This document shows positions 537 to 26,218 of a DNA stretch of 28,656 bases, piece after piece. Location: positions 1-28,656 of IMG/VR virus record IMGVR_UViG_3300014201_000023. One strand, written 5' to 3'. Source of the DNA: a virus (taxonomy: Duplodnaviria > Caudoviricetes). Each line of letters opens with the position of its first letter. Positions within the stretch are counted from its first letter, which is position 1. Position numbers and translations under genes: made by a program. Below the pieces are notes generated by a model. That model had not been told where the DNA came from and did no database searches. It saw only the letters and a list, made by a program, of their open reading frames with translations.

Positions 537-787
537 GCCGCGCTGCCACACTGCCGAAGGCCGAGCGCAGTCACTGCAATGATCGCAAGCTCAATCGGAC
601 CCTTCGCCAGCTCATGGCGCGTCTGATGCAAGTGCACCAGGAAACCCACCCGCGGCGCCTCGCGCAAAAGTTCGGCGTGAGCCGCGAGTACGTCTACAAA
701 GTTTGGACCGACATACCGGCCGATGAGCAAGCCGAGATCGAGCATGCCATCCAGGCGCTGCGGAAGGGCGTCACATCCTGCGAGTAG
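533..787 (+). CDS. Small helix-turn-helix DNA-binding protein
   Basis: HPRRLAQKFGVSREYVYKVW fits the HTH pattern LAxxFGVSxxxVxx. Confidence 0.7.
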   Translation: MSRAATLPKAERSHCNDRKLNRTLRQLMARLMQVHQETHPRRLAQKFGVSREYVYKVWTDIPADEQAEIEHAIQALRKGVTSCE

Positions 788-819
788 TCAACACGCTCGG
801 GCTGCGTTTTGCTTACCGT
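786..819 (+). promoter_or_regulatory. Putative phage late promoter, copy 1
   Basis: AGTCAACACGC (786-796), 17 nt, TACCGT (814-819). Intergenic, same geometry as copies at 7246 and 19541. Confidence 0.7.
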
Positions 820-1773: not shown

Positions 1774-2460
1774 ATGAAGATCTGGATTCGATCCCTCATC
1801 ACCGCCGCGCTCGGCCTATGGGCGGCGCTCGCTCTGGCCGGCAATGCCCCCTACGGGGTGTTCGGCGGTGCGAGCACGTTCGCCAACCTGCCGGGCAATA
1901 TCTCGCTCACCTTCGCCTCGGCGCCCTCCGGCTCATCGACCGCCATTGCAACGGCTTGGACGGGCTCGACGGGCTCCTACCTCGTGGTGTTCTCCGATTG
2001 GGAGAGCCGTACCGTCACCTTGACCAATGCTGCGACCACCGCGACCTGGACCGGCGCGCTGGTGGGTACTCCGACGGTTGCCGCTACGATCGACGGATAC
2101 ACGGCAACGCCCCCGGCTCCGACCTTCGGCTTTACTTCGGATTTAGGCTACGTCTACTCGACGGGCACGGGCTGGTTCGGGACGACCGAGTATGTGGGCG
2201 CCCCGGTTTACATCTCCTCGGGTTGCGCGACCGTCTCGGCGACCAAGGGGACCGCCACGAATGGCCAGTTCTCCACCACCGCGACCACCTGCACGCCGGT
2301 CATTCAGCTGCCCCCAGCGCCTAACGGCTGGGCGTGTCTGGCCTTGGATGTCACGCACCCCGTCGTCTTTACCGAGACCGCGCAGAATACCTACAGCTGC
2401 ACCGTGACCGGCACCACGACATCGGGCGATGTCATCCAATTCTCGGCGACACCGTACTGA
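1774..2460 (+). CDS. Thr-rich beta-structured fibre-like protein with predicted Sec signal peptide
   Basis: MKIWIRSLITAALGLWAALALA-GNAP (n/h/c regions, ALA cleavage site). C-terminal PNGWACxAxDVT...GDVIQF domain resembles phage fibre tips; 4 Cys. Confidence 0.7.
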   Translation: MKIWIRSLITAALGLWAALALAGNAPYGVFGGASTFANLPGNISLTFASAPSGSSTAIATAWTGSTGSYLVVFSDWESRTVTLTNAATTATWTGALVGTPTVAATIDGYTATPPAPTFGFTSDLGYVYSTGTGWFGTTEYVGAPVYISSGCATVSATKGTATNGQFSTTATTCTPVIQLPPAPNGWACLALDVTHPVVFTETAQNTYSCTVTGTTTSGDVIQFSATPY

Positions 2461-7245: not shown

Positions 7246-7279
7246 AGTCAACACGCTGGGTATGCCGTATCGCTAGGGT
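7246..7279 (+). promoter_or_regulatory. Putative phage late promoter, copy 2 (scaffold-capsid operon, probably leaderless)
   Basis: AGTCAACACGC (7246-7256), 17 nt, TAGGGT (7274-7279); scaffold ATG follows after 7 nt. Confidence 0.72.
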
Positions 7280-10153: not shown

Positions 10154-11056
10154 GTGTCGACCATCGTCGATTACAACTCACTCACGCAGGCGATCACGGA
10201 TTTCACGCATCGCTCGGACCTTGCCGCGGGTGTCTATACCGATTATTTCATCCAGGGCGCGATCGAGAAGATTCAGAACGACATCTTCGCTGAGAACTTC
10301 GGCAATGGTATTCAGTTTCAGGAAAACTCCTACCCCCCGACCGTGATCACGAACGGCGTGGCGCCGGTGCCGAATGACTGGCTTGCGCCCAAGCTCATGA
10401 CGGTCTCGGATGGCTCCGGGGATGTGTTCACGCTCATCTGGAAAGCCGCGGCGTGGATCTACGACCAGTACCCGGTGCGGCAGGCCGAAGGATTACCGGC
10501 CTATATCGCGCGCGATGTATCGGCGGGATCGGTTTTCCCCACCTATTCGAACTATCTGTCCTTCACGTGCACGGCGGGCCAGACTGCTTTTACGCTCACG
10601 GGAGGGCCTTCGACACCCGTGCTCTTTGTCTCGCTGGCGGGGCAGGTCATGGTGCCGGGCACCGATTACACGATTGCCGCGGGCGTGCTCACGCTCGGCT
10701 CCGGGGCCGTCGCTGGGCAGACCCTGCTCATCCAATATGCGCCTTTTGAAAACCTCACCGCCTCGAACGCATCGAGCTTCATTTTCGCGCCTTACCCCGA
10801 CAGCGCTTACACCATTCAGGGCACCTACTATCAGAACTGTCCGATGCTTTCGAGCACGCAGGCTACCAATTGGATGGTACTCAACTGCCCGACGCTCCTG
10901 CACGCGGCGTGCATGATCAAAGCGGGCGAGTTTTTGCTGAACGATCAGATGGTCGCGCGCTGGGATACTCTGTATCAGCCGCGACTCATTGCGCTCGTCA
11001 ATCGCGACAAGGCCGAGCGCTGGGGTGCGAGCACGATGCAGATCGAGCTCGGTTGA
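10154..11056 (+). CDS. Head-tail adaptor (tail tubular A-like) with an inserted beta-domain
   Basis: I.DY..L...I.D...R.DL N-terminus, G.P.Y, FAP.PD.AY.I...YY, TNW.....P.L C-terminal part; extra ~86 aa at about 10517-10774. Confidence 0.8.
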   Translation: MSTIVDYNSLTQAITDFTHRSDLAAGVYTDYFIQGAIEKIQNDIFAENFGNGIQFQENSYPPTVITNGVAPVPNDWLAPKLMTVSDGSGDVFTLIWKAAAWIYDQYPVRQAEGLPAYIARDVSAGSVFPTYSNYLSFTCTAGQTAFTLTGGPSTPVLFVSLAGQVMVPGTDYTIAAGVLTLGSGAVAGQTLLIQYAPFENLTASNASSFIFAPYPDSAYTIQGTYYQNCPMLSSTQATNWMVLNCPTLLHAACMIKAGEFLLNDQMVARWDTLYQPRLIALVNRDKAERWGASTMQIELG

Positions 11057-11059
11057 GCC

Positions 11060-11797
11060 ATGCCGCAGCCGCTCGACATACTCTTTGGTCCCTGGGCGCC
11101 CGATCTGCAGAATGTTCCGCAGCAACTCAACGCAGCGCCCGGACCTCAGATGGTCCCGAGCGCGGACTGCTTGAACGTCTACTATCAGGATGGCGCGTAT
11201 CGCTGTCTGCCGGCGCCGGCTGCCACCGGGCCGGCCCTCACCGCGCAAGTCTTGGGAGCCTTCACCTACTACGACGATGTGGCGGGCAAAGAAATCGTCT
11301 TCGCGGGCACCGCAGCGGGAATGAACGAATTGTTGGATGGGGCCTGGAGCGCCATCCCCTTCACGACCACCGGCATCGTGTATCTTTCGGGCATTCCGCT
11401 TCTGCTTACTCAGGGCTCGCCCTTGCTCGGGTATTTGGGGACCATGACGGCCGGCAACTGGCACGGTGTCAGCACCTCAGAGGTGGGTTACGATACCGTG
11501 CGCTCGATCGGGTCGATATCGCCCGTGGATGATGTTAACGGCTATAAGATCGGCCAGGTTTATGATTTCAACTCCTCATCGGGCACCAGTTTCATTTTCA
11601 GCATTGGCACCTATGCGACGCCCGCGCCCAACTTGGGAGCGAGTTATTTTCAGGAAGTATATCTGTCGAGTCTGAGCGCGACATTCCTCGCTTCCGCGGC
11701 GTCCTATTCTTTCAGCAGCGGCGTCAACTCCTGGCAGTGGAGCACGGCCGCGGGATTCGTCACCGGCACTAATTACCCCGTCGAGATCATCTACTAA
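11060..11797 (+). CDS. Tail nozzle N-terminal part (~99 aa) fused to an unrelated beta-rich C-terminal domain
   Basis: FGPWAPD...NV....G.YR.LP...GAF...VFAGT...W matches the nozzle N-terminus; the remainder is an aromatic S/T/G-rich domain. Confidence 0.7.
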   Translation: MPQPLDILFGPWAPDLQNVPQQLNAAPGPQMVPSADCLNVYYQDGAYRCLPAPAATGPALTAQVLGAFTYYDDVAGKEIVFAGTAAGMNELLDGAWSAIPFTTTGIVYLSGIPLLLTQGSPLLGYLGTMTAGNWHGVSTSEVGYDTVRSIGSISPVDDVNGYKIGQVYDFNSSSGTSFIFSIGTYATPAPNLGASYFQEVYLSSLSATFLASAASYSFSSGVNSWQWSTAAGFVTGTNYPVEIIY

Positions 11798-13209
11798 TGA
11801 GCGTCGGGGCGACCTCTTGGAGTTTCGCGGCGATGAATCAGTACGTCGCGATGATCCCGTACACGCAAAACGGCTATAACACGGGGCCATATTTGTGGGC
11901 GAATCAGGGCGCGAGCAATGCGATCTCCCGTCCTTCGGGCGCGCCTGGGTGCCGGGTAGGCGCGACGGTCGGACAGTTCTTGATGCTGGGGGATCTCTTT
12001 CAGACGATCTCGACGACACTGTTCACCGGCAATGGCTCGCAGAATTCCTACTCGGGATACGTGCCCATCCCGATGCTATCCCTGGGCTCGATCGCGGATT
12101 CTGCCGGCGATTTGACTGGCACGCTCAATGCCAATGGGACCGTGACCGGAACGGGCTATCTCTCGACGGGCTCGATCAACTTTGCGACCGGCGCCCTCTC
12201 GCTCACCTTCTCCACCGCGCCCCCGAACGCCGATATCGTGAGCGCCTTGACGACGCAGTTCGCGCCCTACCGGGTGTGGTGGAGCGCGATTGGAGACCCC
12301 ACCAACTGGCCCACCCCGCTCACCGCCAATGCGATCGCCTTCCAATCGGGATATCAGGATTTGGACCCGGCCTTGGGGCCCGTGATGTTCATCGCGGGCT
12401 ATCCGCTCTACGGCCTGATTTTCCAGCGCTTCGGCATCACGTTGAGCTCCTATCAGGGTGGCAATGTGGTGTTCTCCTTCGGCACCTATGAGCGCGCACA
12501 CGGGCTGATTGCGCACGGTGCTGCGGTCAAGGTGTCGGGAACGGTCTACTTTTTGGCCGATGACGGGTTCTATGCGACCGATGGCGCGAACGTGGCACCG
12601 ATCGGGACGGCGCCTGATAATTCGGCGGGCATCGATAACTGGTTCTGGGCAAACGTGAACCAGAATGCGCTCGAGGCGATTCGCTCGGGGTATGATCCGG
12701 TCAAGCGGTGCGTCTTTTGGGCGATCCCGACGGGCGCCAATACGCTGCCCGACACGCTCCTCGCCTATAATATTCTCGCGCAGCGTTGGACGCGATCGAG
12801 CGTGGCGAGCGAGTGCATCTGGACTTCGGACAATGGGGCGGATAACTCCCCCGGCACGCGCCAGGTGCTCGGCGTGTTCGATCAGACGCACACGCCGAAT
12901 TTGCTCAATGGCGCAACGCTCACTGGGTACTTGGAATCCTGCGACCTGTTCATTGCCGATGCGAATCGGCGCTTTACCTCCGGCGTGCGTGCGCAGATTC
13001 AGTGCACGGATAACCCCATTGTGACCTTGGGGGCGCGCGAGGGCGTGCAATCGCAGATCCTCTACAATGCCGGAACCAATCCCGACCCCTTCTCGCTGAT
13101 CGCCCCGCAGCTCGTCTCGGCGCTCTACACGCGCGCGCGGCTCGCCTCAGGGGCGGCGAGCGCGATATCGGGCGTGACCTTATTGCAGGAAGTGGAGGGA
13201 CCGCTATGA
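11797..13209 (+). CDS. Tail nozzle / stabilisation protein (tubular B-like beta-propeller), remaining part
   Basis: WSFA..N.YV, VGQFL.LG, PYRVWWSAIGDPT.W, YQDL....G.V, GLIFQ, VYFLADDGFY, LLAYN....RW; TAATG overlap with the upstream ORF. Confidence 0.8.
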   Translation: MSVGATSWSFAAMNQYVAMIPYTQNGYNTGPYLWANQGASNAISRPSGAPGCRVGATVGQFLMLGDLFQTISTTLFTGNGSQNSYSGYVPIPMLSLGSIADSAGDLTGTLNANGTVTGTGYLSTGSINFATGALSLTFSTAPPNADIVSALTTQFAPYRVWWSAIGDPTNWPTPLTANAIAFQSGYQDLDPALGPVMFIAGYPLYGLIFQRFGITLSSYQGGNVVFSFGTYERAHGLIAHGAAVKVSGTVYFLADDGFYATDGANVAPIGTAPDNSAGIDNWFWANVNQNALEAIRSGYDPVKRCVFWAIPTGANTLPDTLLAYNILAQRWTRSSVASECIWTSDNGADNSPGTRQVLGVFDQTHTPNLLNGATLTGYLESCDLFIADANRRFTSGVRAQIQCTDNPIVTLGAREGVQSQILYNAGTNPDPFSLIAPQLVSALYTRARLASGAASAISGVTLLQEVEGPL

Positions 13210-13394
13210 AGGTGATGACGACCAAAGGATTGATTGAGGCGGCGGACCTTGACCCCCAAGATTTCATCACCTGGAGCGATAACGCGCGCGTCATCGCGAC
13301 CGAGTGGCGCCTGCAGGGCGAGCTCGTGCGCCGGGATGTGTGGGTGAGCGCGTTGCGGCCGATCGAAGGGGAGGCCAAGATTCATGCCAGCTAG
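13206..13394 (+). CDS. Small conserved phage protein
   Basis: GGAGG SD, ATGA coupling; TTKG...E.W...GELV.R pattern. Confidence 0.7.
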   Translation: MKVMTTKGLIEAADLDPQDFITWSDNARVIATEWRLQGELVRRDVWVSALRPIEGEAKIHAS

Positions 13395-13845
13395 CAATGT
13401 GCAGGCCATGGCGACCTCGTTCAAGGGCGAGGTCTTGCAGGGCATCCACAATCTCGGGGTCGGTGTGACACGCGGATCGACCGCGGCCGATACCCTCAAA
13501 GCGGCGCTCTACTACCAAAACGAGGGTCTGGGGGCTTCCACGACGGCGTATTCTGCGACGGGCGAGGTCTCGGGCACCGGCTACACCGCGGGCGGCAATA
13601 CCGTCACGAACGCAACGGCCCCGGCCACCTCCGGCACCACCGCCTATTGGACGCCCTCAGCCAATCTTTCCTGGACCGGACTCACCATTTCCTCGTTGTT
13701 CGACTGCGTGCTCATCTACAATTCGACTCAAGCCAATCGTGCGATCGCGACTTTCACGTTCGCCGCGCAGACGGTCGCGGCGGGCAATTTCATCATCACC
13801 ATGCCCGTGAATGCGGCCACGAGCGCGTTGATCCAGCTCAATTGA
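13384..13845 (+). CDS. Conserved virion structural protein (153 aa)
   Basis: QAM.TSFK.E.L.G.H, KAALY, TTAYSATGEVSGTGYTAGG, LIYNS motifs common in phage tail regions. Confidence 0.75.
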   Translation: MPASNVQAMATSFKGEVLQGIHNLGVGVTRGSTAADTLKAALYYQNEGLGASTTAYSATGEVSGTGYTAGGNTVTNATAPATSGTTAYWTPSANLSWTGLTISSLFDCVLIYNSTQANRAIATFTFAAQTVAAGNFIITMPVNAATSALIQLN

Positions 13846-17095: not shown

Positions 17096-18824
17096 CGCGC
17101 AGCTAGACCCCGAGTTTCAGCAATTGCTCGATACCGTTCAAGGTAAGTCGAGTTCAATCCCATGGAACACGAAAGCCGCGAACGCCGCAGCGATGACCCA
17201 CGGCGGCACGGGCGGCTATGATCCAGCCAATTCCGCGTGGATGCAAAGATGGGGACCGACTGCGGGCATGTCAACCCCTGCGCTTGCGCTTGCTGGCGCC
17301 GGCCAGGGACTCACCGATGTCGCGCGCCATGCGGGCAATCTAGTCGGACTTGAGTCTGATCAGGATTTGCGGAACGCGAAGGCATTGGATGCCCCTCTAC
17401 TCGGCACGGGCGCGGGGCGCTTGGGGCAGTTCGTCGGCCAAACCGCCGCCTTGGCACCCGTCGGCATGGGAGCGGGCGCGGCATTGGGGCGCATGGGTGC
17501 CCTGGGCGCGCGGCTCGCTGCCAATCCGATCGCGAGCGGCGCTATCCAAGGAGCGGGGCAGGGCGCTCTCATGGCTGATCCGGGCGAGCGCGGAAAGGGG
17601 GCGCTCATGGGCGGGGCTTTGGGCACATCAGTCCCCGCGCTTGCCGCAGGGCTGGGGAAAGCCGCCTACGGCGTCTCCCGCACCCCCGAGGCGCAGCTGC
17701 TGCTCGACCGCGGTATCGACTTGACTCCAGGGCAGATGAACCCGCGCGGCATGGCCAATCGCATGGAGCAGGCGGCCGAGGGCGCGCTAGGCGTCGGCGA
17801 CCTGATCCAAAACGCGCGGCAGAACGCCATGGGGCAGTATTCGCGCGCGGCGTTGCAAGATGCGATGCCGGCTGGCCAGAAGCTCGCGGGCGCGGGTGAC
17901 TTCAACGAGCTCATCGATGAGGCGGCGGCCAAGTTTGATACCGCCTATGACGGTGCGAAGGGCTTTCCCGTAGGCGCCAAGATCATGCAGGTGCAGGGGC
18001 CGGACATCCCGTTGTCGAAGGCGCTGCAACAAGTGGCTGCGAAACCACGGATCGGCTTGACTGCCGATGCGCGCTCGGACTGGGGGCAACAGCTCAATGA
18101 CCAGCTCAATGAAGTGATCAAGACCGCCAAGGCGACGGGCGGCATGCAAAGCGATCACTTGATCGCGTTTCGATCCGCGATCCGCGATGCGCTGCGCGGT
18201 GAGAACGGGACCGACAATGCTTCGCGTGCCGCGCGCAGTCTTCTGCAAGACGCGAACGACAAAGTGACGCAAGCGCTAGAAAGCCAACTGCCCACGGATG
18301 TCGCGCAGACACTTCGGCAGACGGACCAGCAATATGCGCGCTTCTCGATCCTGCGAAATGCCGCTGTGGCTGCGAAGGATGCGCCGGGCGGCCCGACGCC
18401 ATTTCAAATCTCGACTGCCATCGCCAAAGCAACCCCTCCGAACGCCTATGCCCGAGGAGCCGGTGCGGGGCGGGATCTGTCGAAGGCCGCAATGGACACT
18501 TTCCAGAACAACGTGCCGCGCACGGGCCTCGCGGGCGTGGGGCGATTGGCGCTACCGGCCGCGGCGCTGGGAGGCGTCGGCCTCGCTCACCCCGCCGCGC
18601 TTGCGCTTCCGGCCGGTATGGCCGCGCTCACCCTCACACAGACAGGGCGAAAGCTCGCCGCAGGTAATACGGCCGCACAGAAGTGGCTGCAAGGACTGCT
18701 CGGGAATGTCCAAGGCACGGTGCCAGCGAATGTGCGCAACCTCCCTGGGCTCTATGCGCGATCGGGACTTTTGAGCGGCGCCGCGCCGCGTCTACAACAG
18801 ATGCCCGCACAAGCCGATCAATAA
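17085..18824 (+). CDS. DNA ejection / internal virion protein 3 (P22 gp16-like role)
   Basis: Start at ATG 17085 (MPSDAQ); Gly/Ala hydrophobic stretches, GI.LTPGQ motif, hydrophobic C-terminal region. Confidence 0.72.
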   Translation: MPSDAQLDPEFQQLLDTVQGKSSSIPWNTKAANAAAMTHGGTGGYDPANSAWMQRWGPTAGMSTPALALAGAGQGLTDVARHAGNLVGLESDQDLRNAKALDAPLLGTGAGRLGQFVGQTAALAPVGMGAGAALGRMGALGARLAANPIASGAIQGAGQGALMADPGERGKGALMGGALGTSVPALAAGLGKAAYGVSRTPEAQLLLDRGIDLTPGQMNPRGMANRMEQAAEGALGVGDLIQNARQNAMGQYSRAALQDAMPAGQKLAGAGDFNELIDEAAAKFDTAYDGAKGFPVGAKIMQVQGPDIPLSKALQQVAAKPRIGLTADARSDWGQQLNDQLNEVIKTAKATGGMQSDHLIAFRSAIRDALRGENGTDNASRAARSLLQDANDKVTQALESQLPTDVAQTLRQTDQQYARFSILRNAAVAAKDAPGGPTPFQISTAIAKATPPNAYARGAGAGRDLSKAAMDTFQNNVPRTGLAGVGRLALPAAALGGVGLAHPAALALPAGMAALTLTQTGRKLAAGNTAAQKWLQGLLGNVQGTVPANVRNLPGLYARSGLLSGAAPRLQQMPAQADQ

Positions 18825-19072
18825 CGCGCTGGGTCGGTGTAGAGCAGCGCGAGCATGAGAAGTGCGAAAAAGCCGAGGGGCAGAATCACCGGCCACCAGT
18901 CTTTGCGCTCGGCCTCCGACTTCGGAACGATAGTGAGGCGTCGTGTGAGAATGCGACGCAGTGTTCCATGTGGAACCAATTTCAGCACGCAATGCGCGAT
19001 CACGGCAGCGGTAAAAAACAGTGCGACGGCCACAAAAGGGCGCCCGATGATGGCTAGCGCTGTCCAACCCAT
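18818..19072 (-). CDS. Small two-TM membrane protein, antisense to the late operon (superinfection-exclusion / moron candidate)
   Basis: Two hydrophobic segments with a basic loop; exactly fills the gap between + strand genes; has its own promoter candidate. Confidence 0.7.
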   Translation of the reverse strand: MGWTALAIIGRPFVAVALFFTAAVIAHCVLKLVPHGTLRRILTRRLTIVPKSEAERKDWWPVILPLGFFALLMLALLYTDPARY

Positions 19073-19078
19073 GCCACG

Positions 19079-19107
19079 AGCCTAACATGCCCACGCAGAT
19101 CCCCCAA
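19079..19107 (-). promoter_or_regulatory. Putative sigma70-type extended -10 promoter for the reversed membrane gene (leaderless)
   Basis: Minus strand: TTGGGG, 17 nt ending in TGT, TAGGCT, 6 nt, ATG (19072). Confidence 0.5.
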
Positions 19108-19542
19108 CTCGCGCAGCTCGAGCGCAAGCTCCCCGCCGCGCAAGCCGACTGGGACCGTTTTCGTGTCGAACTCGACCGCTGGCGCACCACCCTGCAGGGC
19201 ATGAACTGGACCGCCATCACGCTCAAAAACAACTGGGTGGCCTACGGTGGCACGACATTTGCGCCCCCCGCCTATTACCTCGATGCGGCGGGGCGCGTCT
19301 TCTGCCGCGGCCTCATCAAGTCCGGCACTGTGACCGATGGCACGGTCTTGTTCACGCTCCCCTATACGCCTTCTTGGGAAGCAATCACCTTCGCGCCGGC
19401 CTATAGCGGCGGACCGGCGACCTATGTCCCCGCGCGCTTGGATGTGCAGCAAAGCGGGAACGTCGTGATTTACAATGCCGGTACCTTCACGGGTGGCTAT
19501 TTCGTGTCGCTCGATCAGCTCTCCTTCTCCCTCATCCAATAG
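19087..19542 (+). CDS. Short tail needle or fibre protein with receptor-binding-type head domain
   Basis: N-terminal helix, then W.AITL.NNW..Y...P.Y..D..GRV..RGLIK.G...GT.LFTLP...RLDV...G.V...SLD.LSF, a typical fibre tip domain. Confidence 0.65.
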   Translation: MPTQIPQLAQLERKLPAAQADWDRFRVELDRWRTTLQGMNWTAITLKNNWVAYGGTTFAPPAYYLDAAGRVFCRGLIKSGTVTDGTVLFTLPYTPSWEAITFAPAYSGGPATYVPARLDVQQSGNVVIYNAGTFTGGYFVSLDQLSFSLIQ

Positions 19543-19574
19543 TCAACACGCCCGCCCGAGCCGTTCTATAGCGT
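19541..19574 (+). promoter_or_regulatory. Putative phage late promoter, copy 3 (fibre and lysis operon, probably leaderless)
   Basis: AGTCAACACGC (19541-19551), 17 nt, TAGCGT (19569-19574); ATG at 19583 follows after 8 nt with no SD. Confidence 0.72.
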
Positions 19575-19582
19575 GCGAAAGC

Positions 19583-22500
19583 ATGCGACGCCTTGGCGCT
19601 GTGCTCCTCCTGCTATTGCCCTTGCTGACCCTCGCGCAGCCGACGGTGATCAACTACTCGACCACCCCCTCCGGGCAGCAGATTCCGCAATCGAACTGGG
19701 TCTCGATCGTCAATGCCAATTTTGCCGCGGGCGGTGGAGGCGGGGGCGGCGGCATCGGCGGCCCGACCAGCATGCAATGGGCCGAGCTCGTCTGCGATTC
19801 CACGTGCGGCAATAAGTCGCTCTCGGGCCTCTGCTACATCGATGGAATCAATTGCTCGAGCATCATTCCGACCGTCGTGCTGCTCACCGCCCAGACCAAT
19901 GCCGACCAAAACGGCTTATGGAGTGTTTCCACGAGCGGGGTGTGGTCGCGCCCTACGAACTACGCCTCGGGATCGACCACGCTCGCCATCAACGGCATGA
20001 CGATTTTCGTGTGGAATGGCTTGAAATACCAAGGCTCGATCTGGAATCTTTATAACGGCTTGACGGGTACGATTACCATCGATTCGACCCCGACCACCTG
20101 GTATGACAACCCGCCGAGGGTGATCGCCACGGGCACGAGCGTCGGGCGCTTGGTCTCGGCGCGTGCGGCGGATGTCGCGAATGTCTTGGACTATGGCGCG
20201 ACTGGAACCGCCTTGCGCAAGAACTACGGCAATGGCACGGGGGGCATTAATTGCACGTCGGGGTCTTCATCGATCACGCTCAATAGCGTTACGGTCCCCT
20301 ATACCTCGGCGAGCGCGCTCATCCCCGGCTGCGGCAATCCAGGGGCGGTCAATAGCTCAAATCCCGGCTCGGCTTCCTCGACGTTCACCTTCTCGGCGGC
20401 TGGCACGGGCTATGTGCCGGGCGAGATTCTTACCTGCTCCGGGGGCACACAGACCACCGCCTGCCAAGCCGTCGTCTACTCAACGAACGTCGTCGCGCAG
20501 CCGACCTTGGTGAGCGGGGGCTCGGGGTGCACCAACAATACGGGCGTGACGTTCACGGGCACGACGGGCAATGCCGGCTCCTCCGGCTCCGGCTTTTTCA
20601 CGATCACCGGCAATGTGTCCGGCAACGCACTGACCTCCATCACCGGCTATACCGCGAATGGCCCCTATTGGACGAATCCCACAACCATTACCGCAGAGCC
20701 CGTGAGCGGCGGCGGGTGCTCGGTCGCGCCCACCGTCTCGGTGACGCTCGGGGCGAACCTGGGCAGCATGATCGTTGCCGGCAATTACACCGCGGTGCCC
20801 TCAAATCCGGTCTCCTTCACCTCAAGCCCCGGCTCGGGCGCGCAGGCAACCTTCGGCACGAGCCCCTACTGGTATGGCAATCCTCTGGTGGGCACGATCT
20901 CGAACGTCGTGAATTCGGGCGGCAATTCCACCTTCACGATATCGGCGAATGCCGCCTCGACGCTCACCAATGGCGCCGGCAAGGTCTATCTGTGGATCAA
21001 CGATGATGAGCCGGGCATTGCGGCGGCGATTGCGAGCGGCAAGAACACGCTGCTCTTCCCGACACCGCCCGCCGTGACGGGCTGGGAGACGGGCTATGTG
21101 ATGAGCACGGGCGTCTCCACGCAAGGCTCGCACGAGCTCGACTTTAACTGTCAGGGCAATTTCCTCTCCGGCGCGAACGCCTCCAACATCTCGACCGCGA
21201 TGCTGACTTTAAGTCAGGCATCGGCTTTCCGCGCGACCTTGGGCTCGATCGTGCATAACTGCCATTTTGATGCGGCGGGGAATTTCGCGCGCAATATCAC
21301 GAGCGCGGATTGGGATTGGATCGTGACCGCGAATTCTTTCGAGAATGCGGCATCGCTCAACGTCGCGTGGGCCTATGGAAGCGGGCGCGCAGGCGAGGGG
21401 CGCCTGTTCGATAACTACATCATCAACGATGGCTATAACCCGCTCACCTTCCCCACCAACGGCATCGTGAACGAGCGGCCCGATGAGCGCTTCGAAATGC
21501 TCACCATGCAAGGCTTTCAGAGCTGCGCGATCAATTCGACGAACGGCACGGGCGATGCGGTCTATTTCGACATTCACGCTTATCAGACGCTCGAAGGCCC
21601 CGGCGTTTTCTGCGAATACGGCGCGGGCAATCACTGGATCGCGAACCTCGCCGATGGCCCACCGCCGGGCGCTGCGGGGTTCTACGCATCGAACGGCTAC
21701 AACACGTATACCGACAACGATTATCAGGCGGATAACGGATATCAGGGGCAGTACGGAATTTTGCTGACCTCCTCCTCGCAGCACAACTCGATCGTGAGCG
21801 GCAACTTTCAGTCGGGCACGACGCCCACCAAATACGCCTGTGTCGATCAGTCAACCAATGGGAACAATTACTGGGGCTCGAATATCCAGAATTGCCCCAA
21901 TATCGGCAATATGCCGGCGGTCCCGACCGTTGCGGGCGTGGCATCGATCCCGACCTATACCGGCGCCATCACGGCAACGCATTGCGCGGAGTGGTCGGCC
22001 TTGGGGATCCTCGAGGATTCCGGCAATACGTGCGGCGGCGGCGGGGGTAGTCCCGCATTCAGCTCCATCACGGCCGGGACAAACACGACCGCTGCCATGG
22101 TGGTGGGCTCCGGCTCGAGCTTGGCGCCCACGGGCACGGGCACGATTGCGGCGACCTCGCTCTCGGCGCTCACGGGACTTCCGACCATTGCGAACAATGA
22201 CATTTTGGGGAACAACTCGGGCTCGACCGCTGCGCCCTCCGCGCTCACGGGTGGGAACGTGCAGGCGATTCTGGTCGCCGCGAACTTTGGCTATATCTCC
22301 GATACGCCCGCCGCGGGGCCGATCAATGATTACTCACCCACGGGCTTTGGCAATTCGAGCGGGTGGATCGACATTCAGCCGGCCACCGGAGGCACCACCA
22401 TCGATGGGCTCGTCGCGGGCGTGGACGGCCAAGCGGTGCTCATTGCGAACGATGAGGCGACGACCGGCACGGACAATGTGACCCTCGTCAATCAAAGCTC

Positions 22501-22615
22501 CTCGGACTCGACCGCGGCGAACCGGTTCCGAGCGGCGGGGAACTTGCTCATCCCACCGGGCGGCCGGGTGCTTTGCATCTATCGCACTGCCTTTTCGCGC
22601 TGGAGCTGTCAGTGA
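19583..22615 (+). CDS. Large multidomain tail fibre or spike with beta-helix domain and predicted Sec signal peptide
   Basis: MRRLGAVLLLLLPLLTLA-QP; fibre domain LSGL..IDG...VLLTAQT...QNGLW.V....W.R; NVLDYGA...DD..IAAAIA beta-helix cap; poly-Gly linkers; about 20 Cys. Confidence 0.8.
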   Translation: MRRLGAVLLLLLPLLTLAQPTVINYSTTPSGQQIPQSNWVSIVNANFAAGGGGGGGGIGGPTSMQWAELVCDSTCGNKSLSGLCYIDGINCSSIIPTVVLLTAQTNADQNGLWSVSTSGVWSRPTNYASGSTTLAINGMTIFVWNGLKYQGSIWNLYNGLTGTITIDSTPTTWYDNPPRVIATGTSVGRLVSARAADVANVLDYGATGTALRKNYGNGTGGINCTSGSSSITLNSVTVPYTSASALIPGCGNPGAVNSSNPGSASSTFTFSAAGTGYVPGEILTCSGGTQTTACQAVVYSTNVVAQPTLVSGGSGCTNNTGVTFTGTTGNAGSSGSGFFTITGNVSGNALTSITGYTANGPYWTNPTTITAEPVSGGGCSVAPTVSVTLGANLGSMIVAGNYTAVPSNPVSFTSSPGSGAQATFGTSPYWYGNPLVGTISNVVNSGGNSTFTISANAASTLTNGAGKVYLWINDDEPGIAAAIASGKNTLLFPTPPAVTGWETGYVMSTGVSTQGSHELDFNCQGNFLSGANASNISTAMLTLSQASAFRATLGSIVHNCHFDAAGNFARNITSADWDWIVTANSFENAASLNVAWAYGSGRAGEGRLFDNYIINDGYNPLTFPTNGIVNERPDERFEMLTMQGFQSCAINSTNGTGDAVYFDIHAYQTLEGPGVFCEYGAGNHWIANLADGPPPGAAGFYASNGYNTYTDNDYQADNGYQGQYGILLTSSSQHNSIVSGNFQSGTTPTKYACVDQSTNGNNYWGSNIQNCPNIGNMPAVPTVAGVASIPTYTGAITATHCAEWSALGILEDSGNTCGGGGGSPAFSSITAGTNTTAAMVVGSGSSLAPTGTGTIAATSLSALTGLPTIANNDILGNNSGSTAAPSALTGGNVQAILVAANFGYISDTPAAGPINDYSPTGFGNSSGWIDIQPATGGTTIDGLVAGVDGQAVLIANDEATTGTDNVTLVNQSSSDSTAANRFRAAGNLLIPPGGRVLCIYRTAFSRWSCQ

Positions 22616-24531
22616 AACGGTTCATCGCGGCGATGGCGCTCGTGCTTCCCCTCATCGTTGGGATCGCATGGCTTTCCTTCCCTGCCCAGTCGATGATCTA
22701 CTTCGGCGGCAATACCGTGGGCGGATCGGGCCCCGTTTTTGGCTACGACGGGGTAATCGCGGTTTCATCGACCGGCCAGATGGTGAACGGCCACGGTACG
22801 GCGATTCAGCTGCGCGGTGCAAATATCGCGCTTCTCGATTCCACCATCTACTCGAACCAGCCCGCCAATCAGCAATGCTGGGGCCCTTACGCGGGTGGAG
22901 GCGGCCCGCCTTGGCCGACCTATGGCAGTTCGGGCGGATGGAACTTCAACGCTGCGCGTTTCACTATGAACGCCTCCGCGTTCTTGAACGTGCTCATCGG
23001 CACGGTGACGGGCAGTGCGTCGGCGCCCGTGTGGGGCGGGACAACCCATCAAGCGGATCTGAACGGCGTCATTAAGAATTGCCTTATCAATTCGATCCAG
23101 TGGGCGCGCGCGAACAATCTCTACATCATCATCGATGAGCACGCCGCAGCGCCCTCCTACACCTTCAGCAGCACCACGCATTATGTCGGCGCCTGGGGGC
23201 AGCCGCTGTTCATCGATCACAACACGGGCGGCCCCTATTGGTATGCGGGTTATGGCGCCGGCCCCGGCGTCACGGATTCTGCGGGTTACGCCTCCTCGGG
23301 CATCGTCGCCTTCATCGATACCTATTTTGGCTCTGCGGCCTTCAACAGTGCGCATGGCTTCAATGGAGGCGCGGCGGGCACCTATTACAACTCGAATTAT
23401 GGGGGCGCTTCGGGCGTCAACGACATCATCTTCGAGCTTTTCAATGAGCCTTACCTTGATCAGCAGGGGCTCAATTTCAACACGGCAAATTTAGGTGCCG
23501 GATCATCGCAGACCGCCTACCAGATCATGGGCAATGGCGGCTGGGTGTCGGGCTACTGCAACCAAAACATCGGCACGGGCACGCTCAATCCCGGCTCCAT
23601 TCCCGTAGGTATTCCGACCTCGCTCTATGGCGCGAGTGGTCAGGCCAACACCACCAGCAACGGCTTCTGTTTTAACTGGTGGTGGCAAGCGGATGGCTAT
23701 CAAACCGTTCTGAACGGCATCCGCGCGCTCGGCAACACGAACGTCATTCAGATCAACGGGCCGGGCTTCACCACAGGGTTCGGGCACATCACGACCTACA
23801 TGCCGACCGATACGCTCTCGGTGCGGCAGATGTCGCTCGGCTGGCATCCGTACCCCGTGGGCTCTTTCCCGAACAATGATGATGGGTACGCCGGGACGAA
23901 ATACGCCCTGCAATTCCCACAGGCCATGATCGCGGGCTCATCGAGCTATACCGTCAACGGCACGGGGTTCACGGGGCTCGGATACAAGATACCCGTCGAG
24001 GCCGATGAAACCGGCACGAGCGGCGGCCCGAGCGCGACGCAGCCCGACCCCTATATACGCTCCATGACGCAATGGGCGGATGGGGGCACCGATACGACTA
24101 ATGGCGTCGCGTTCAGCGGAACTTTCGGGGTGCTCACTTGGAACGGCCTGCAAAACCTTCCCTACGGATATGGCGGCTCTGCTCAGTCGTGGCTCATGTT
24201 CATCTATGGCGCGACGCAGAGCGTCACGGGCTATGTCACGAGCACGCAAGCGGCGGGCTATCCGCTCGGCACGGGCGAGATCGTGGTGACGAATGCGAAC
24301 GGGAACACCATCACGCCGGGACTCGTGATCACGAGCGGCTACAGCTCGGGCGATGGCTTCGTCGGGCCGCAACTCTCGGGCACCACCGGGGGCGCCGGTA
24401 CTTATGTGTTCTCCATGAATACCGCGCAGGGCTCAAGTGGTAGCCCCTTGAGCATGAGCGGGCAGTATTGGCTGCCGGTGAATGGCGAGGGACAGACCAT
24501 GTACAACTGGACGAATCCACACTCGCCATGA
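22612..24531 (+). CDS. Glycoside hydrolase family 5-like (clan GH-A) enzyme with predicted signal peptide
   Basis: GTG start (GGAG SD, GTGA overlap). LRGAN, WNFNAARF, LYIIIDEH, FELFNEP (acid/base), WHPY, PVEADETG (nucleophile), LTW. Confidence 0.8.
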   Translation: MKRFIAAMALVLPLIVGIAWLSFPAQSMIYFGGNTVGGSGPVFGYDGVIAVSSTGQMVNGHGTAIQLRGANIALLDSTIYSNQPANQQCWGPYAGGGGPPWPTYGSSGGWNFNAARFTMNASAFLNVLIGTVTGSASAPVWGGTTHQADLNGVIKNCLINSIQWARANNLYIIIDEHAAAPSYTFSSTTHYVGAWGQPLFIDHNTGGPYWYAGYGAGPGVTDSAGYASSGIVAFIDTYFGSAAFNSAHGFNGGAAGTYYNSNYGGASGVNDIIFELFNEPYLDQQGLNFNTANLGAGSSQTAYQIMGNGGWVSGYCNQNIGTGTLNPGSIPVGIPTSLYGASGQANTTSNGFCFNWWWQADGYQTVLNGIRALGNTNVIQINGPGFTTGFGHITTYMPTDTLSVRQMSLGWHPYPVGSFPNNDDGYAGTKYALQFPQAMIAGSSSYTVNGTGFTGLGYKIPVEADETGTSGGPSATQPDPYIRSMTQWADGGTDTTNGVAFSGTFGVLTWNGLQNLPYGYGGSAQSWLMFIYGATQSVTGYVTSTQAAGYPLGTGEIVVTNANGNTITPGLVITSGYSSGDGFVGPQLSGTTGGAGTYVFSMNTAQGSSGSPLSMSGQYWLPVNGEGQTMYNWTNPHSP

Positions 24532-25934
24532 AAATGCTGACTCGCCTCATTGCTCTGCTCGCGTTCCTGCCTTCACTGGCTCATGCCTATTCTTACGGTA
24601 CCCCGCAAGAACTCGTGAACTCGGGCGGCAACACGGCCTCTGTCACGCTCACGGGCGTTCCAAGCGGGGCGAATATCGTCGCCTGCTTCACATGGAATAC
24701 AAACGGCACGTTTACGAGCATGACGGACAACGGTTCCAACATGAGCGCGGCGGGAAGCCAGCTCAACAGCACCTCGAATGTGAACGGGGTGTGCTACTAC
24801 GACACGAACGTTGCCTCTGGCTCGCACACCATTACTGCGACACAAACGAGCTACGGCGGCAATTACCTGGTGGCGTTTTATGTGGCGGGCGCGGGCGCCT
24901 TCGACGGCGCGAACGGGAATAACTCGAATTTCGCCGGCACGGGGGCGAACGCGGTGCTCGGCGGCAGCGTCACGACCACGGCAGCCGGCGATGCCATCAT
25001 CGGGTTTTTCAACACGGTATCCGGCTCTGGAACCTTAAGCGCAGGCACGAGCCCCGGCACCTTCACGAGCTTGGGGTTTACCTCTGCGGTCACGAACTTT
25101 GGCGAGTACTACACGCAGGCAAGCGCCGGGGCGATCCAAGCGGCGGCGACCACCAGCTCCGCGGGCGACATCATCTCCTTCACGATCGCCTTCAGAGCTG
25201 GGAGCGCCGGAAGCTCGGGAAGCGCTGCGCTGTTCAATCAATTCACGCTCTCGCAGTGGCAGACCATTACAACCAACACGACGCTCTCGCCCGCCATTCC
25301 CGCCGTGCTGTGCAATGCCGCTGCGGGCGCCATCACTGTGACCATCCCGACAGCCGTCGGAAGCTTTCAGACCTACTACGTCAAAAAGATCGACTCGACC
25401 TCGAACGCTTGCACGCTTACCCCGCAGAGTGGGCAGACCATCGAGAACGCCTCCACCTACGCGCTTACCGTTCCCTTGAGCAAGATCGCGCTGAAATCCG
25501 ATAGCGCGAACTGGTGGGACGGGGGAGGAGGCGTCGCACAAACTACCGGGACGTTTACGGCCGCTTTCACTGGATTCGGTACAGGTCCTTCCTCGTGCAC
25601 CGTGACTTATACGATTCAGGGCTACATTGCCGTCGTCAATTTCTCGCTAGGCAGCTGCACGGCCACTTCCAACTCAGGGAACATGACCATCACGAATTGG
25701 CCGGCCGCCTTGCAACCCGCAACGATCACCAATCAGACCTGCGCCCTGGAGCTTGTGGACAACGGCAATGGTCTTTCCGGGGAGATGACGCTCGGCAATG
25801 CGAGTGCGACCGTGGTTCTCGGCCTCTATGCAACAAACACGGTGACAAATCGCGTGTCTGGAGCTGCCGGCAATTTCACTTCGAGCGGAACCAAGGGCAT
25901 TGATTACGGACCATGCGTCTACTCGCTGCAATAG
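24528..25934 (+). CDS. Three-domain beta-rich fibre or adhesin-like protein with predicted Sec signal peptide
   Basis: MKMLTRLIALLAFLPSLAHA-YSY; middle LCNA..GAITVT.P...Y.VKKIDS..N..T...TI fibre module; tip domain TGTFT...Y...G..V.V...ITN.P; 8 Cys. Confidence 0.75.
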   Translation: MKMLTRLIALLAFLPSLAHAYSYGTPQELVNSGGNTASVTLTGVPSGANIVACFTWNTNGTFTSMTDNGSNMSAAGSQLNSTSNVNGVCYYDTNVASGSHTITATQTSYGGNYLVAFYVAGAGAFDGANGNNSNFAGTGANAVLGGSVTTTAAGDAIIGFFNTVSGSGTLSAGTSPGTFTSLGFTSAVTNFGEYYTQASAGAIQAAATTSSAGDIISFTIAFRAGSAGSSGSAALFNQFTLSQWQTITTNTTLSPAIPAVLCNAAAGAITVTIPTAVGSFQTYYVKKIDSTSNACTLTPQSGQTIENASTYALTVPLSKIALKSDSANWWDGGGGVAQTTGTFTAAFTGFGTGPSSCTVTYTIQGYIAVVNFSLGSCTATSNSGNMTITNWPAALQPATITNQTCALELVDNGNGLSGEMTLGNASATVVLGLYATNTVTNRVSGAAGNFTSSGTKGIDYGPCVYSLQ

Positions 25935-26218
25935 TGCTATTTTTCCTCACCGGCTGCGCCGGCTTATCCGTGCGCCCGGAATTCGAGCACATGTCGCACC
26001 TCTCGCAGCATGAGCCGTTCACCGATCATCCCACGGGCTACGGCGAGAATATCGCAAACCTCATCGTGCATTGGCAGCACGGGCCGCTCTATGTGGAGGC
26101 AGGGGAGGGCATTGCCCTCGCGCCCTATTACCCAGCCTCGCAGAGCTTTGGCGAGATCGTGGGGCCCAAGGAGGAATTCAGCTTTCGCTTAGGCTATGTG
26201 CTGTGGGGCGAGCGCTGA
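25913..26218 (+). CDS. Predicted lipoprotein with amphipathic beta-strands
   Basis: MRLLAAIVLFFLTG-C lipobox; C-terminal FSFRLGYVLW. Confidence 0.7.
   Translation: MRLLAAIVLFFLTGCAGLSVRPEFEHMSHLSQHEPFTDHPTGYGENIANLIVHWQHGPLYVEAGEGIALAPYYPASQSFGEIVGPKEEFSFRLGYVLWGER

Follow-up and report, generated by a model that had tools for sequence, protein, structure and literature searches.

The window analysed here is the whole 28,656 nucleotides of the virus record IMGVR_UViG_3300014201_000023 in IMG/VR, a linear record that is 37% complete. The phage is an uncultured SU10-type podophage (short-tailed); genes for portal (SU10-type), scaffold and capsid are present in the window, along with those for an endolysin and for podophage tail and ejection proteins. 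At the tail-fibre position lie three overlapping late genes, designated P1, P2 and P3, whose products all start with what appears to be a Sec-type export leader:

19583..22615, + strand: P1, 1010 amino acids, 20 Cys; leader (about residues 1–18), decoration-type domain (about 65–165), spike-like body, fibre-shaft repeat and C-terminal domain.
19775..20071, + strand: decoration-type domain of P1, resembling PDB 9NX3 chain A as well as virion proteins of mycobacteriophage cluster C.
22612..24531, + strand: P2, 639 amino acids, 4 Cys; leader, glycoside hydrolase family 5 (GH5) TIM barrel and beta-rich C-terminal domain.
24528..25934, + strand: P3, 468 amino acids, 8 Cys; leader (1–20), beta-rich domain and further modules without close relatives.

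An initial annotation, made from the letters of the window, had placed the starts at 19583 (ATG), 22612 (GTG) and 24528 (ATG). These stand, together with the N-termini quoted for them and the coupling of consecutive genes: P1 and P2 overlap by 4 nucleotides (GTGA), as do P2 and P3 (ATGA). The GTG of P2 has GGAG 6 nucleotides upstream; P1 is preceded by a 40-nucleotide gap and has no Shine–Dalgarno sequence. A second contig, maybe from the same sample, matches the window at 99.94% over 16,045 bases with 0 gaps, and the reading frames of P1–P3 are therefore not an assembly artefact.

Leaders were called with a home-made heuristic that looks for a basic n-region, a hydrophobic h-region and a small-residue cleavage site. 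It is positive for P1, P2 and P3, in agreement with the classical leaders proposed earlier; in P2 it puts the cleavage at 19, compared with 27 in the initial annotation, and this site is uncertain. Among 435 unique core virion protein homologs a leader was called in 3, and 24–44 of 5000 shuffles per protein (<1%) were called. Low-charge fibre-like proteins received a call in 35 of 78 cases, as opposed to 16 of 644 other proteins of at least 200 amino acids. The two near-full-length homologs of P1 that were found, P0047 and P0048, both retain a leader, although the leader sequences are unrelated. Conservation of the signal in homologs thus holds for these two, whereas leaderless forms of P1, P2 and P3 modules exist too. 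From a profile search with P1 modules the best 150 relatives were taken, 148 of them new and 145 with intact starts: a leader was called in 68 of these 145, and in 34 of 38 in the shaft/C-terminal module. Most leader-bearing members of this set would start with Gln once cleaved, like P1, a hint of pyroglutamate capping.

In another phage, a leaderless GH5 gene is likewise followed by a leaderless twin of P3; the pair is preceded by a phrog_644 gene and followed by terminase and portal. Residue 20 of P3 aligns to residue 2 of this twin, at 47% identity. Because this leaderless P2–P3 pair exists and its P3 starts where mature P3 would, the sequences indicate that the leaders are add-ons under selection. 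The beta-rich first domain of P3 is found both with and without a leader, and in the P2 tree forms with a leader are interspersed with leaderless ones; three heuristic calls in that tree were judged false, and database protein starts are possibly miscalled.

The cysteines point in the same direction through their pairing. The counts given initially, 20, 4 and 8 in P1, P2 and P3 and one in the capsid protein, are confirmed; the description as Cys-rich suits P1 and P3 and fails for P2, with 4 in 639 residues. The comparison with the capsid protein was rejected, given that the leaderless adaptor (4 in 300), nozzle (5 in 470) and a 565-residue protein, P565 (5 in 565), hold similar numbers; since leaderless proteins of the window have as many, it is pairing and not richness that forms the signal. 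In the P1-module relatives an even Cys count is found in 61 of the 67 proteins with a leader, compared with 26 of the 68 without, a comparison that omits Cys-free proteins (one leader form, nine leaderless) and whose members are not independent, kinship inflating the p-values. Median Cys content in this set is 1.48% with a leader versus 0.61% without. C648 and C677 of P1 are lost together in P0048, and C89 and C157 of P2 co-occur in 3 of 37 sequences, all leader-bearing, with neither ever found alone. Cysteines of P1, P2 and their relatives are thus conserved, gained and lost pairwise, C316/C353 of P2 being the exception.

The module content of the three proteins is that of phage appendages. 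Residues 65–163 of P1 match residues 25–118 of 9NX3 chain A, a 'Capsid decoration protein' (E 1.2e-10; 3.1e-9), and the region also matches mycobacteriophage cluster C virion proteins. The initial annotation had stated that a tailed-phage fibre normally starts with an attachment domain and not a signal peptide: P1 has a leader and, right behind it, a candidate attachment domain. Its label of fibre proteins loosens accordingly, as P1–P3 need not be tail fibres when P1 carries a domain of capsid-decoration type. The body of P1 looks like a spike, with a putative beta-helix interrupted by an insert (about 215–470), with an Atlas feature lead of 0.90 to viral beta-helix clusters and no Pfam or PHROG match to the helix; a fibre-shaft-like repeat precedes a C-terminal domain common to leaderless phage proteins. 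The single-sequence AlphaFold model is poor, with a predicted local distance difference test (pLDDT) score of 32, and no relatives emerged when viral contigs were scanned for the patterns of P1 and P0005. Judged by these matches, P1 is a mosaic of decoration, spike-like and fibre-shaft modules.

P2 is a GH5 protein by Pfam (PF00150 above cut-off). E279 (acid/base, NEP motif) and E466 (nucleophile), their roles assigned by motif, are invariant in 26 of 26 aligned sequences. The P2 model reaches a pLDDT of 86 and its best fold matches are GH5 enzymes and also phage glycanases; P2 alone gave no PDB sequence match. P3 has no usable Atlas feature match and its structure neighbours are weak. A GH5 module was also seen in a 3711-residue low-charge protein of L146 (2342–13477), whose gene context looks like that of a large phage. 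The window has its own phrog_644 gene at 13384–13845, and relatives of that gene repeatedly flank low-charge appendage-like cassettes in unrelated phages (L134, L210).

The gap before P1 contains the motif AGTCAACACGC, a candidate late promoter or regulator site, of which the copies are:

19541..19551, + strand: intergenic copy in the 40-nucleotide gap before P1.
786..796, + strand: copy upstream of the gene run with P228 (described below) and portal.
7246..7256, + strand: copy upstream of the scaffold and capsid genes.

These are exactly three exact copies in the window, all intergenic, and matches with one mismatch number 4 against 0.35 expected. The exact copies bear out the earlier statement that P1 follows the same motif as scaffold and capsid; a promoter role is a candidate only. 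In 12 related records the motif is not kept ahead of genes. Scans for sigma-70 promoters and terminators gave chance levels, with no sigma-70 site above chance. P1–P3 lie on the late strand, and their G+C content at third codon positions is 0.74–0.80, compared with 0.72–0.83 in core genes. Short contigs from two metatranscriptomes fall in the operon (22490–22718; 20888–21308) and were not used: they give neither strand nor level, and DNA carry-over is possible.

Further genes of the window bear on the same question:

19087..19542, + strand: g151, a leaderless mini-fibre whose N-terminal part of about 35 amino acids is fused to spike-like proteins of 570–630 amino acids in relatives.
1774..2460, + strand: P228, a leader-bearing low-charge late protein with 4 invariant Cys and a C-terminal domain common to a P1 homolog.
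25913..26218, + strand: predicted lipoprotein with lipobox Cys15, overlapping the end of P3 and preceding the lysis genes.

Because long spike-like proteins in the relatives G002, G012 and G014 share its N-terminus, a probable tail anchor, g151 is likely the ordinary anchored fibre of the phage; its weak lectin and Fc-receptor matches were disregarded. The anchor-like segment of the clade, a classical mark of podovirus tail fibres, is thus on g151 and the leaders are on P1–P3. P228, a fourth leader-bearing low-charge product, escaped the initial annotation, which listed three. Its counterparts in the head region of G001, G003 and G010 are about 70% identical and have divergent leaders; in cultured phages it has no match. 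At the slot occupied here by P1–P3, the complete relative G010 carries unrelated leader-bearing proteins of 566 and 1376 amino acids. A leader followed by a conserved short mature N-terminus was found on fibre-like genes at 22 of the 69 capsid loci examined, a set that is not dereplicated and in which many loci are truncated, and the leader-bearing genes seen in relatives are all inside the late operon. The nearest genome relatives of the capsid protein are 8 loci at 65–75% identity, 7 of the 8 in Betaproteobacteria, so a Gram-negative host is likely; the relatives are temperate and include prophages in four named Burkholderiaceae isolates. Past their N-termini, the leader-bearing fibre-like proteins encoded by related Burkholderiaceae prophages match tail-fibre families of PHROG (residues 21–445 of one, for example, match positions 81–499 of phrog_32740), and they also match BcepC6B gp19.

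Taken together, these observations suggest the following course of events. P1–P3 would be synthesised late in infection and sent by their leaders through Sec to the periplasm, where they would fold with disulfides of the Dsb type. Lysis would mix the compartments, and the three proteins could then bind finished, cytoplasm-built particles: P1 by means of its capsid-decoration-type domain, P2 and P3 by docking perhaps on P1, P228 or g151. Their role would be the binding or cutting of glycans, directed against exopolysaccharide or a plant or peat matrix. Export with disulfide folding, as proposed initially, is highly probable on the leader and Cys data, which comprise leaders of unrelated sequence that are nonetheless kept, leaderless twins that begin at the mature end, and pairwise gain and loss of Cys. 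Attachment of P1–P3 to virions, for which the chances appear about even, is where the doubt lies: the search yielded no virion proteome, known anchors are missing from P2 and P3, and in many leaderless proteins the decoration-type domain is an internal repeat. The full model, accessory appendages that are exported, disulfide-folded and joined to the particle at lysis, is likewise evenly balanced between acceptance and rejection.

Several results weigh against this model. C316 and C353 of P2 are also present in two leaderless homologs, and four leader-bearing P2 forms are devoid of both Cys pairs. Cys density hardly differs across a clade-wide set of 75 proteins (1.04 per 100 residues with a leader, 0.88 without), and even counts occur in 23 of 33 leader forms and 14 of 36 leaderless ones. 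Virion disulfides are reported to be able to form spontaneously in air without export (PMC13576161); disulfides alone are therefore no proof of export. The heuristic errs in both directions, with false calls for P0008, P0014 and P0018 and misses for P0057, P0100 and P0177. The decoration-type domain is internal and repeated in many relatives, 42 of 54 of them without a leader call, and rather than a capsid clamp of P1 it may be a building block of general use. Neither P2 nor P3 shows a recognisable docking module, and a literature search limited to abstracts and main text gave no virion proteome of any leader-bearing appendage protein. G001 (97% complete) and G003 have no P1–P3 operon at the slot, which makes the operon accessory or dispensable.

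An alternative that begins with the same export and disulfide folding is that the proteins act as free factors, which either accumulate in the periplasm or leave the cell ahead of lysis. They would help progeny escape by loosening the polysaccharide of biofilm or peat, or by removing receptor-like decoys. The intact GH5 of P2, the missing anchors of P2 and P3 and the position of a dispensable operon directly before the lysis genes all fit this explanation, as does the fact that leader-bearing fibres of relatives do not have the N-terminal part of the tail-fibre profiles they match. A precedent is Pantoea WceF, an exported enzyme of tailspike fold that acts on biofilm and uses Tat (PMC7949094). 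Against it stand the fibre shaft and decoration-type domain that P1 has kept, the lack of a catalytic signature in P3 and P228, the location of the leaderless twins in virion-gene cassettes and the conservation of P228 in the head region; free factors are thus a rather unlikely but serious option. Markedly less probable is a moron-like role in the infected or lysogenic cell, with P1–P3 as surface adhesins or as receptor-masking or exclusion factors. The temperate relatives, the upstream motif of the operon and the lipoprotein gene after P3 would agree with it, and the Bdellovibrio MAT fibres, signal-peptide-bearing trimers resembling phage fibres that are displayed by the cell, provide a bacterial parallel (PMC10769870). 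Yet the motif is the one that precedes scaffold and capsid, strand and third-position G+C are those of late core genes, such genes in relatives are all within the late operon, and no outer-membrane anchor or barrel is evident.

It is very improbable that the leaders are unused and that translation starts downstream, yielding ordinary cytoplasmic virion parts. Met28 of P2 is an in-frame ATG (22693) exactly at the mature start proposed initially, the start of P1 has no Shine–Dalgarno sequence and the leader calls are heuristic only. In contrast, it is the GTG of P2, overlapping the stop of P1, that has a GGAG, while 22693 has none; the first in-frame start of P3 past its leader would cut a conserved domain, and leader character is kept across diverged homologs and co-varies with even Cys counts.

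Analogous proteins exist in cultured phages. BcepC6B gp19, KL4 gp48, PBR31 gp35 and Bcep781 gp49 share with P1–P3 a classical leader on a low-charge fibre-like protein; the first three genes lie between the anchored fibre or spike and the holin, and the RefSeq note on Bcep781 gp49, the single earlier trace that turned up, reads 'possible tail fiber; possible signal peptide domain'. Each of these phages has one such gene, whereas here there are three plus GH5. No direct similarity links P1–P3 to these cultured leader-bearing fibres, and no characterisation of them was found in the accessible literature. Of six phiM5 virion proteins checked, none has a leader. Capsid decoration proteins resemble P1 in the 9NX3-like region, but P1 is four times longer than the known ones and has spike-like modules. 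Decoration proteins such as T4 Hoc and Soc and lambda gpD are dispensable and join finished heads, and known examples have no leaders and are products of the cytoplasm; P22 tailspikes are added to finished particles. The tailspikes and branched receptor-binding protein systems of podoviruses (P22 gp9, K1-5/SP6, KP32) occupy the same position after the ejection genes, have an anchored first fibre followed by anchor-less proteins and display beta-helix and fibre-shaft features, but they fold in the cytoplasm and have no leaders. Filamentous phages do have virion proteins, pIII and pVIII, with Sec leaders and periplasmic disulfides; they are another virus class, whose particles form at the membrane and leave the cell by extrusion, without lysis, and their proteins are membrane-anchored until assembly. 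MAT fibres and WceF are exported and have phage fibre or tailspike folds as here, but they are encoded on bacterial chromosomes, serve to adhere to prey or to trim biofilm, and are not part of a phage late operon. Phage-encoded GH5 proteins, counted as auxiliary metabolic genes, have the fold and both catalytic Glu of P2, which differs in lying in a virion-gene operon beside fibre-type proteins. In a survey of prophages, 5% of carbohydrate-active enzymes have signal peptides; structural genes were excluded there and secretion was read as host metabolism (PMC13507307). A literature search covering few subscription papers and no supplements found no exported tailed-phage appendages described.

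Phage appendage proteins of the P1–P3 type are real and widespread, and they appear to be a variant not described before. To our knowledge, the cytoplasm is assumed to be where tailed-phage particles are finished, and attachment of P1–P3, if shown, would be categorically new for tailed phages; the free-factor explanation too would represent an undescribed late function. If the proteins are added at lysis, Sec and Dsb would be host factors for virion maturation, disulfides could make the receptor-binding gear acid- and protease-stable, and many of the 'auxiliary' carbohydrate enzymes that soil viruses secrete would turn out to be appendages of the virion. Tentatively, and with chances slightly short of even, many soil and wetland tailed phages may build their core in the cytoplasm and, in the periplasm and with disulfides, the appendages that recognise the host and degrade matrix, the latter snapping onto capsid or tail only at lysis; leaders would be repeatedly gained and lost on the same virion modules, and particles could share or swap appendages outside the cell. 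The arrangement is directly testable, being present in cultured BcepC6B, KL4 and PBR31 and in prophages of named environmental isolates.

A number of minor observations concern other parts of the window. P565 (2815–4512, and 2468–2647) is a leaderless, low-charge, spike-like protein before the portal; its first 45 or so residues recur in relatives as the starts of other long proteins or as stand-alone genes of 68–93 amino acids, which suggests a second anchor type. The adaptor (10154–11056) has an internal segment that is absent in some relatives, and the nozzle region (11060–13209) is split into 245 and 470 amino acids, compared with one 822-residue gene in G001; these inserted domains could be docking sites. 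Ahead of P228, 859–1772 encodes two highly charged Gly-rich proteins with a common C-terminal motif, without family match and conserved in G001, G003, G010 and G012. A weak Shewanella phage match was discarded because it ran antisense to an annotated gene. Between the last ejection gene and g151, a small hydrophobic open reading frame (18818–19072, − strand) possibly encodes an exclusion-type membrane protein. Besides the one at 25913–26218, a small predicted lipoprotein is encoded at 97–252, and similar small ones are found near the packaging genes of G001, G010 and G012. More than half of the region's words are present in 4 wetland DNA runs, 2 of which are possibly its source.

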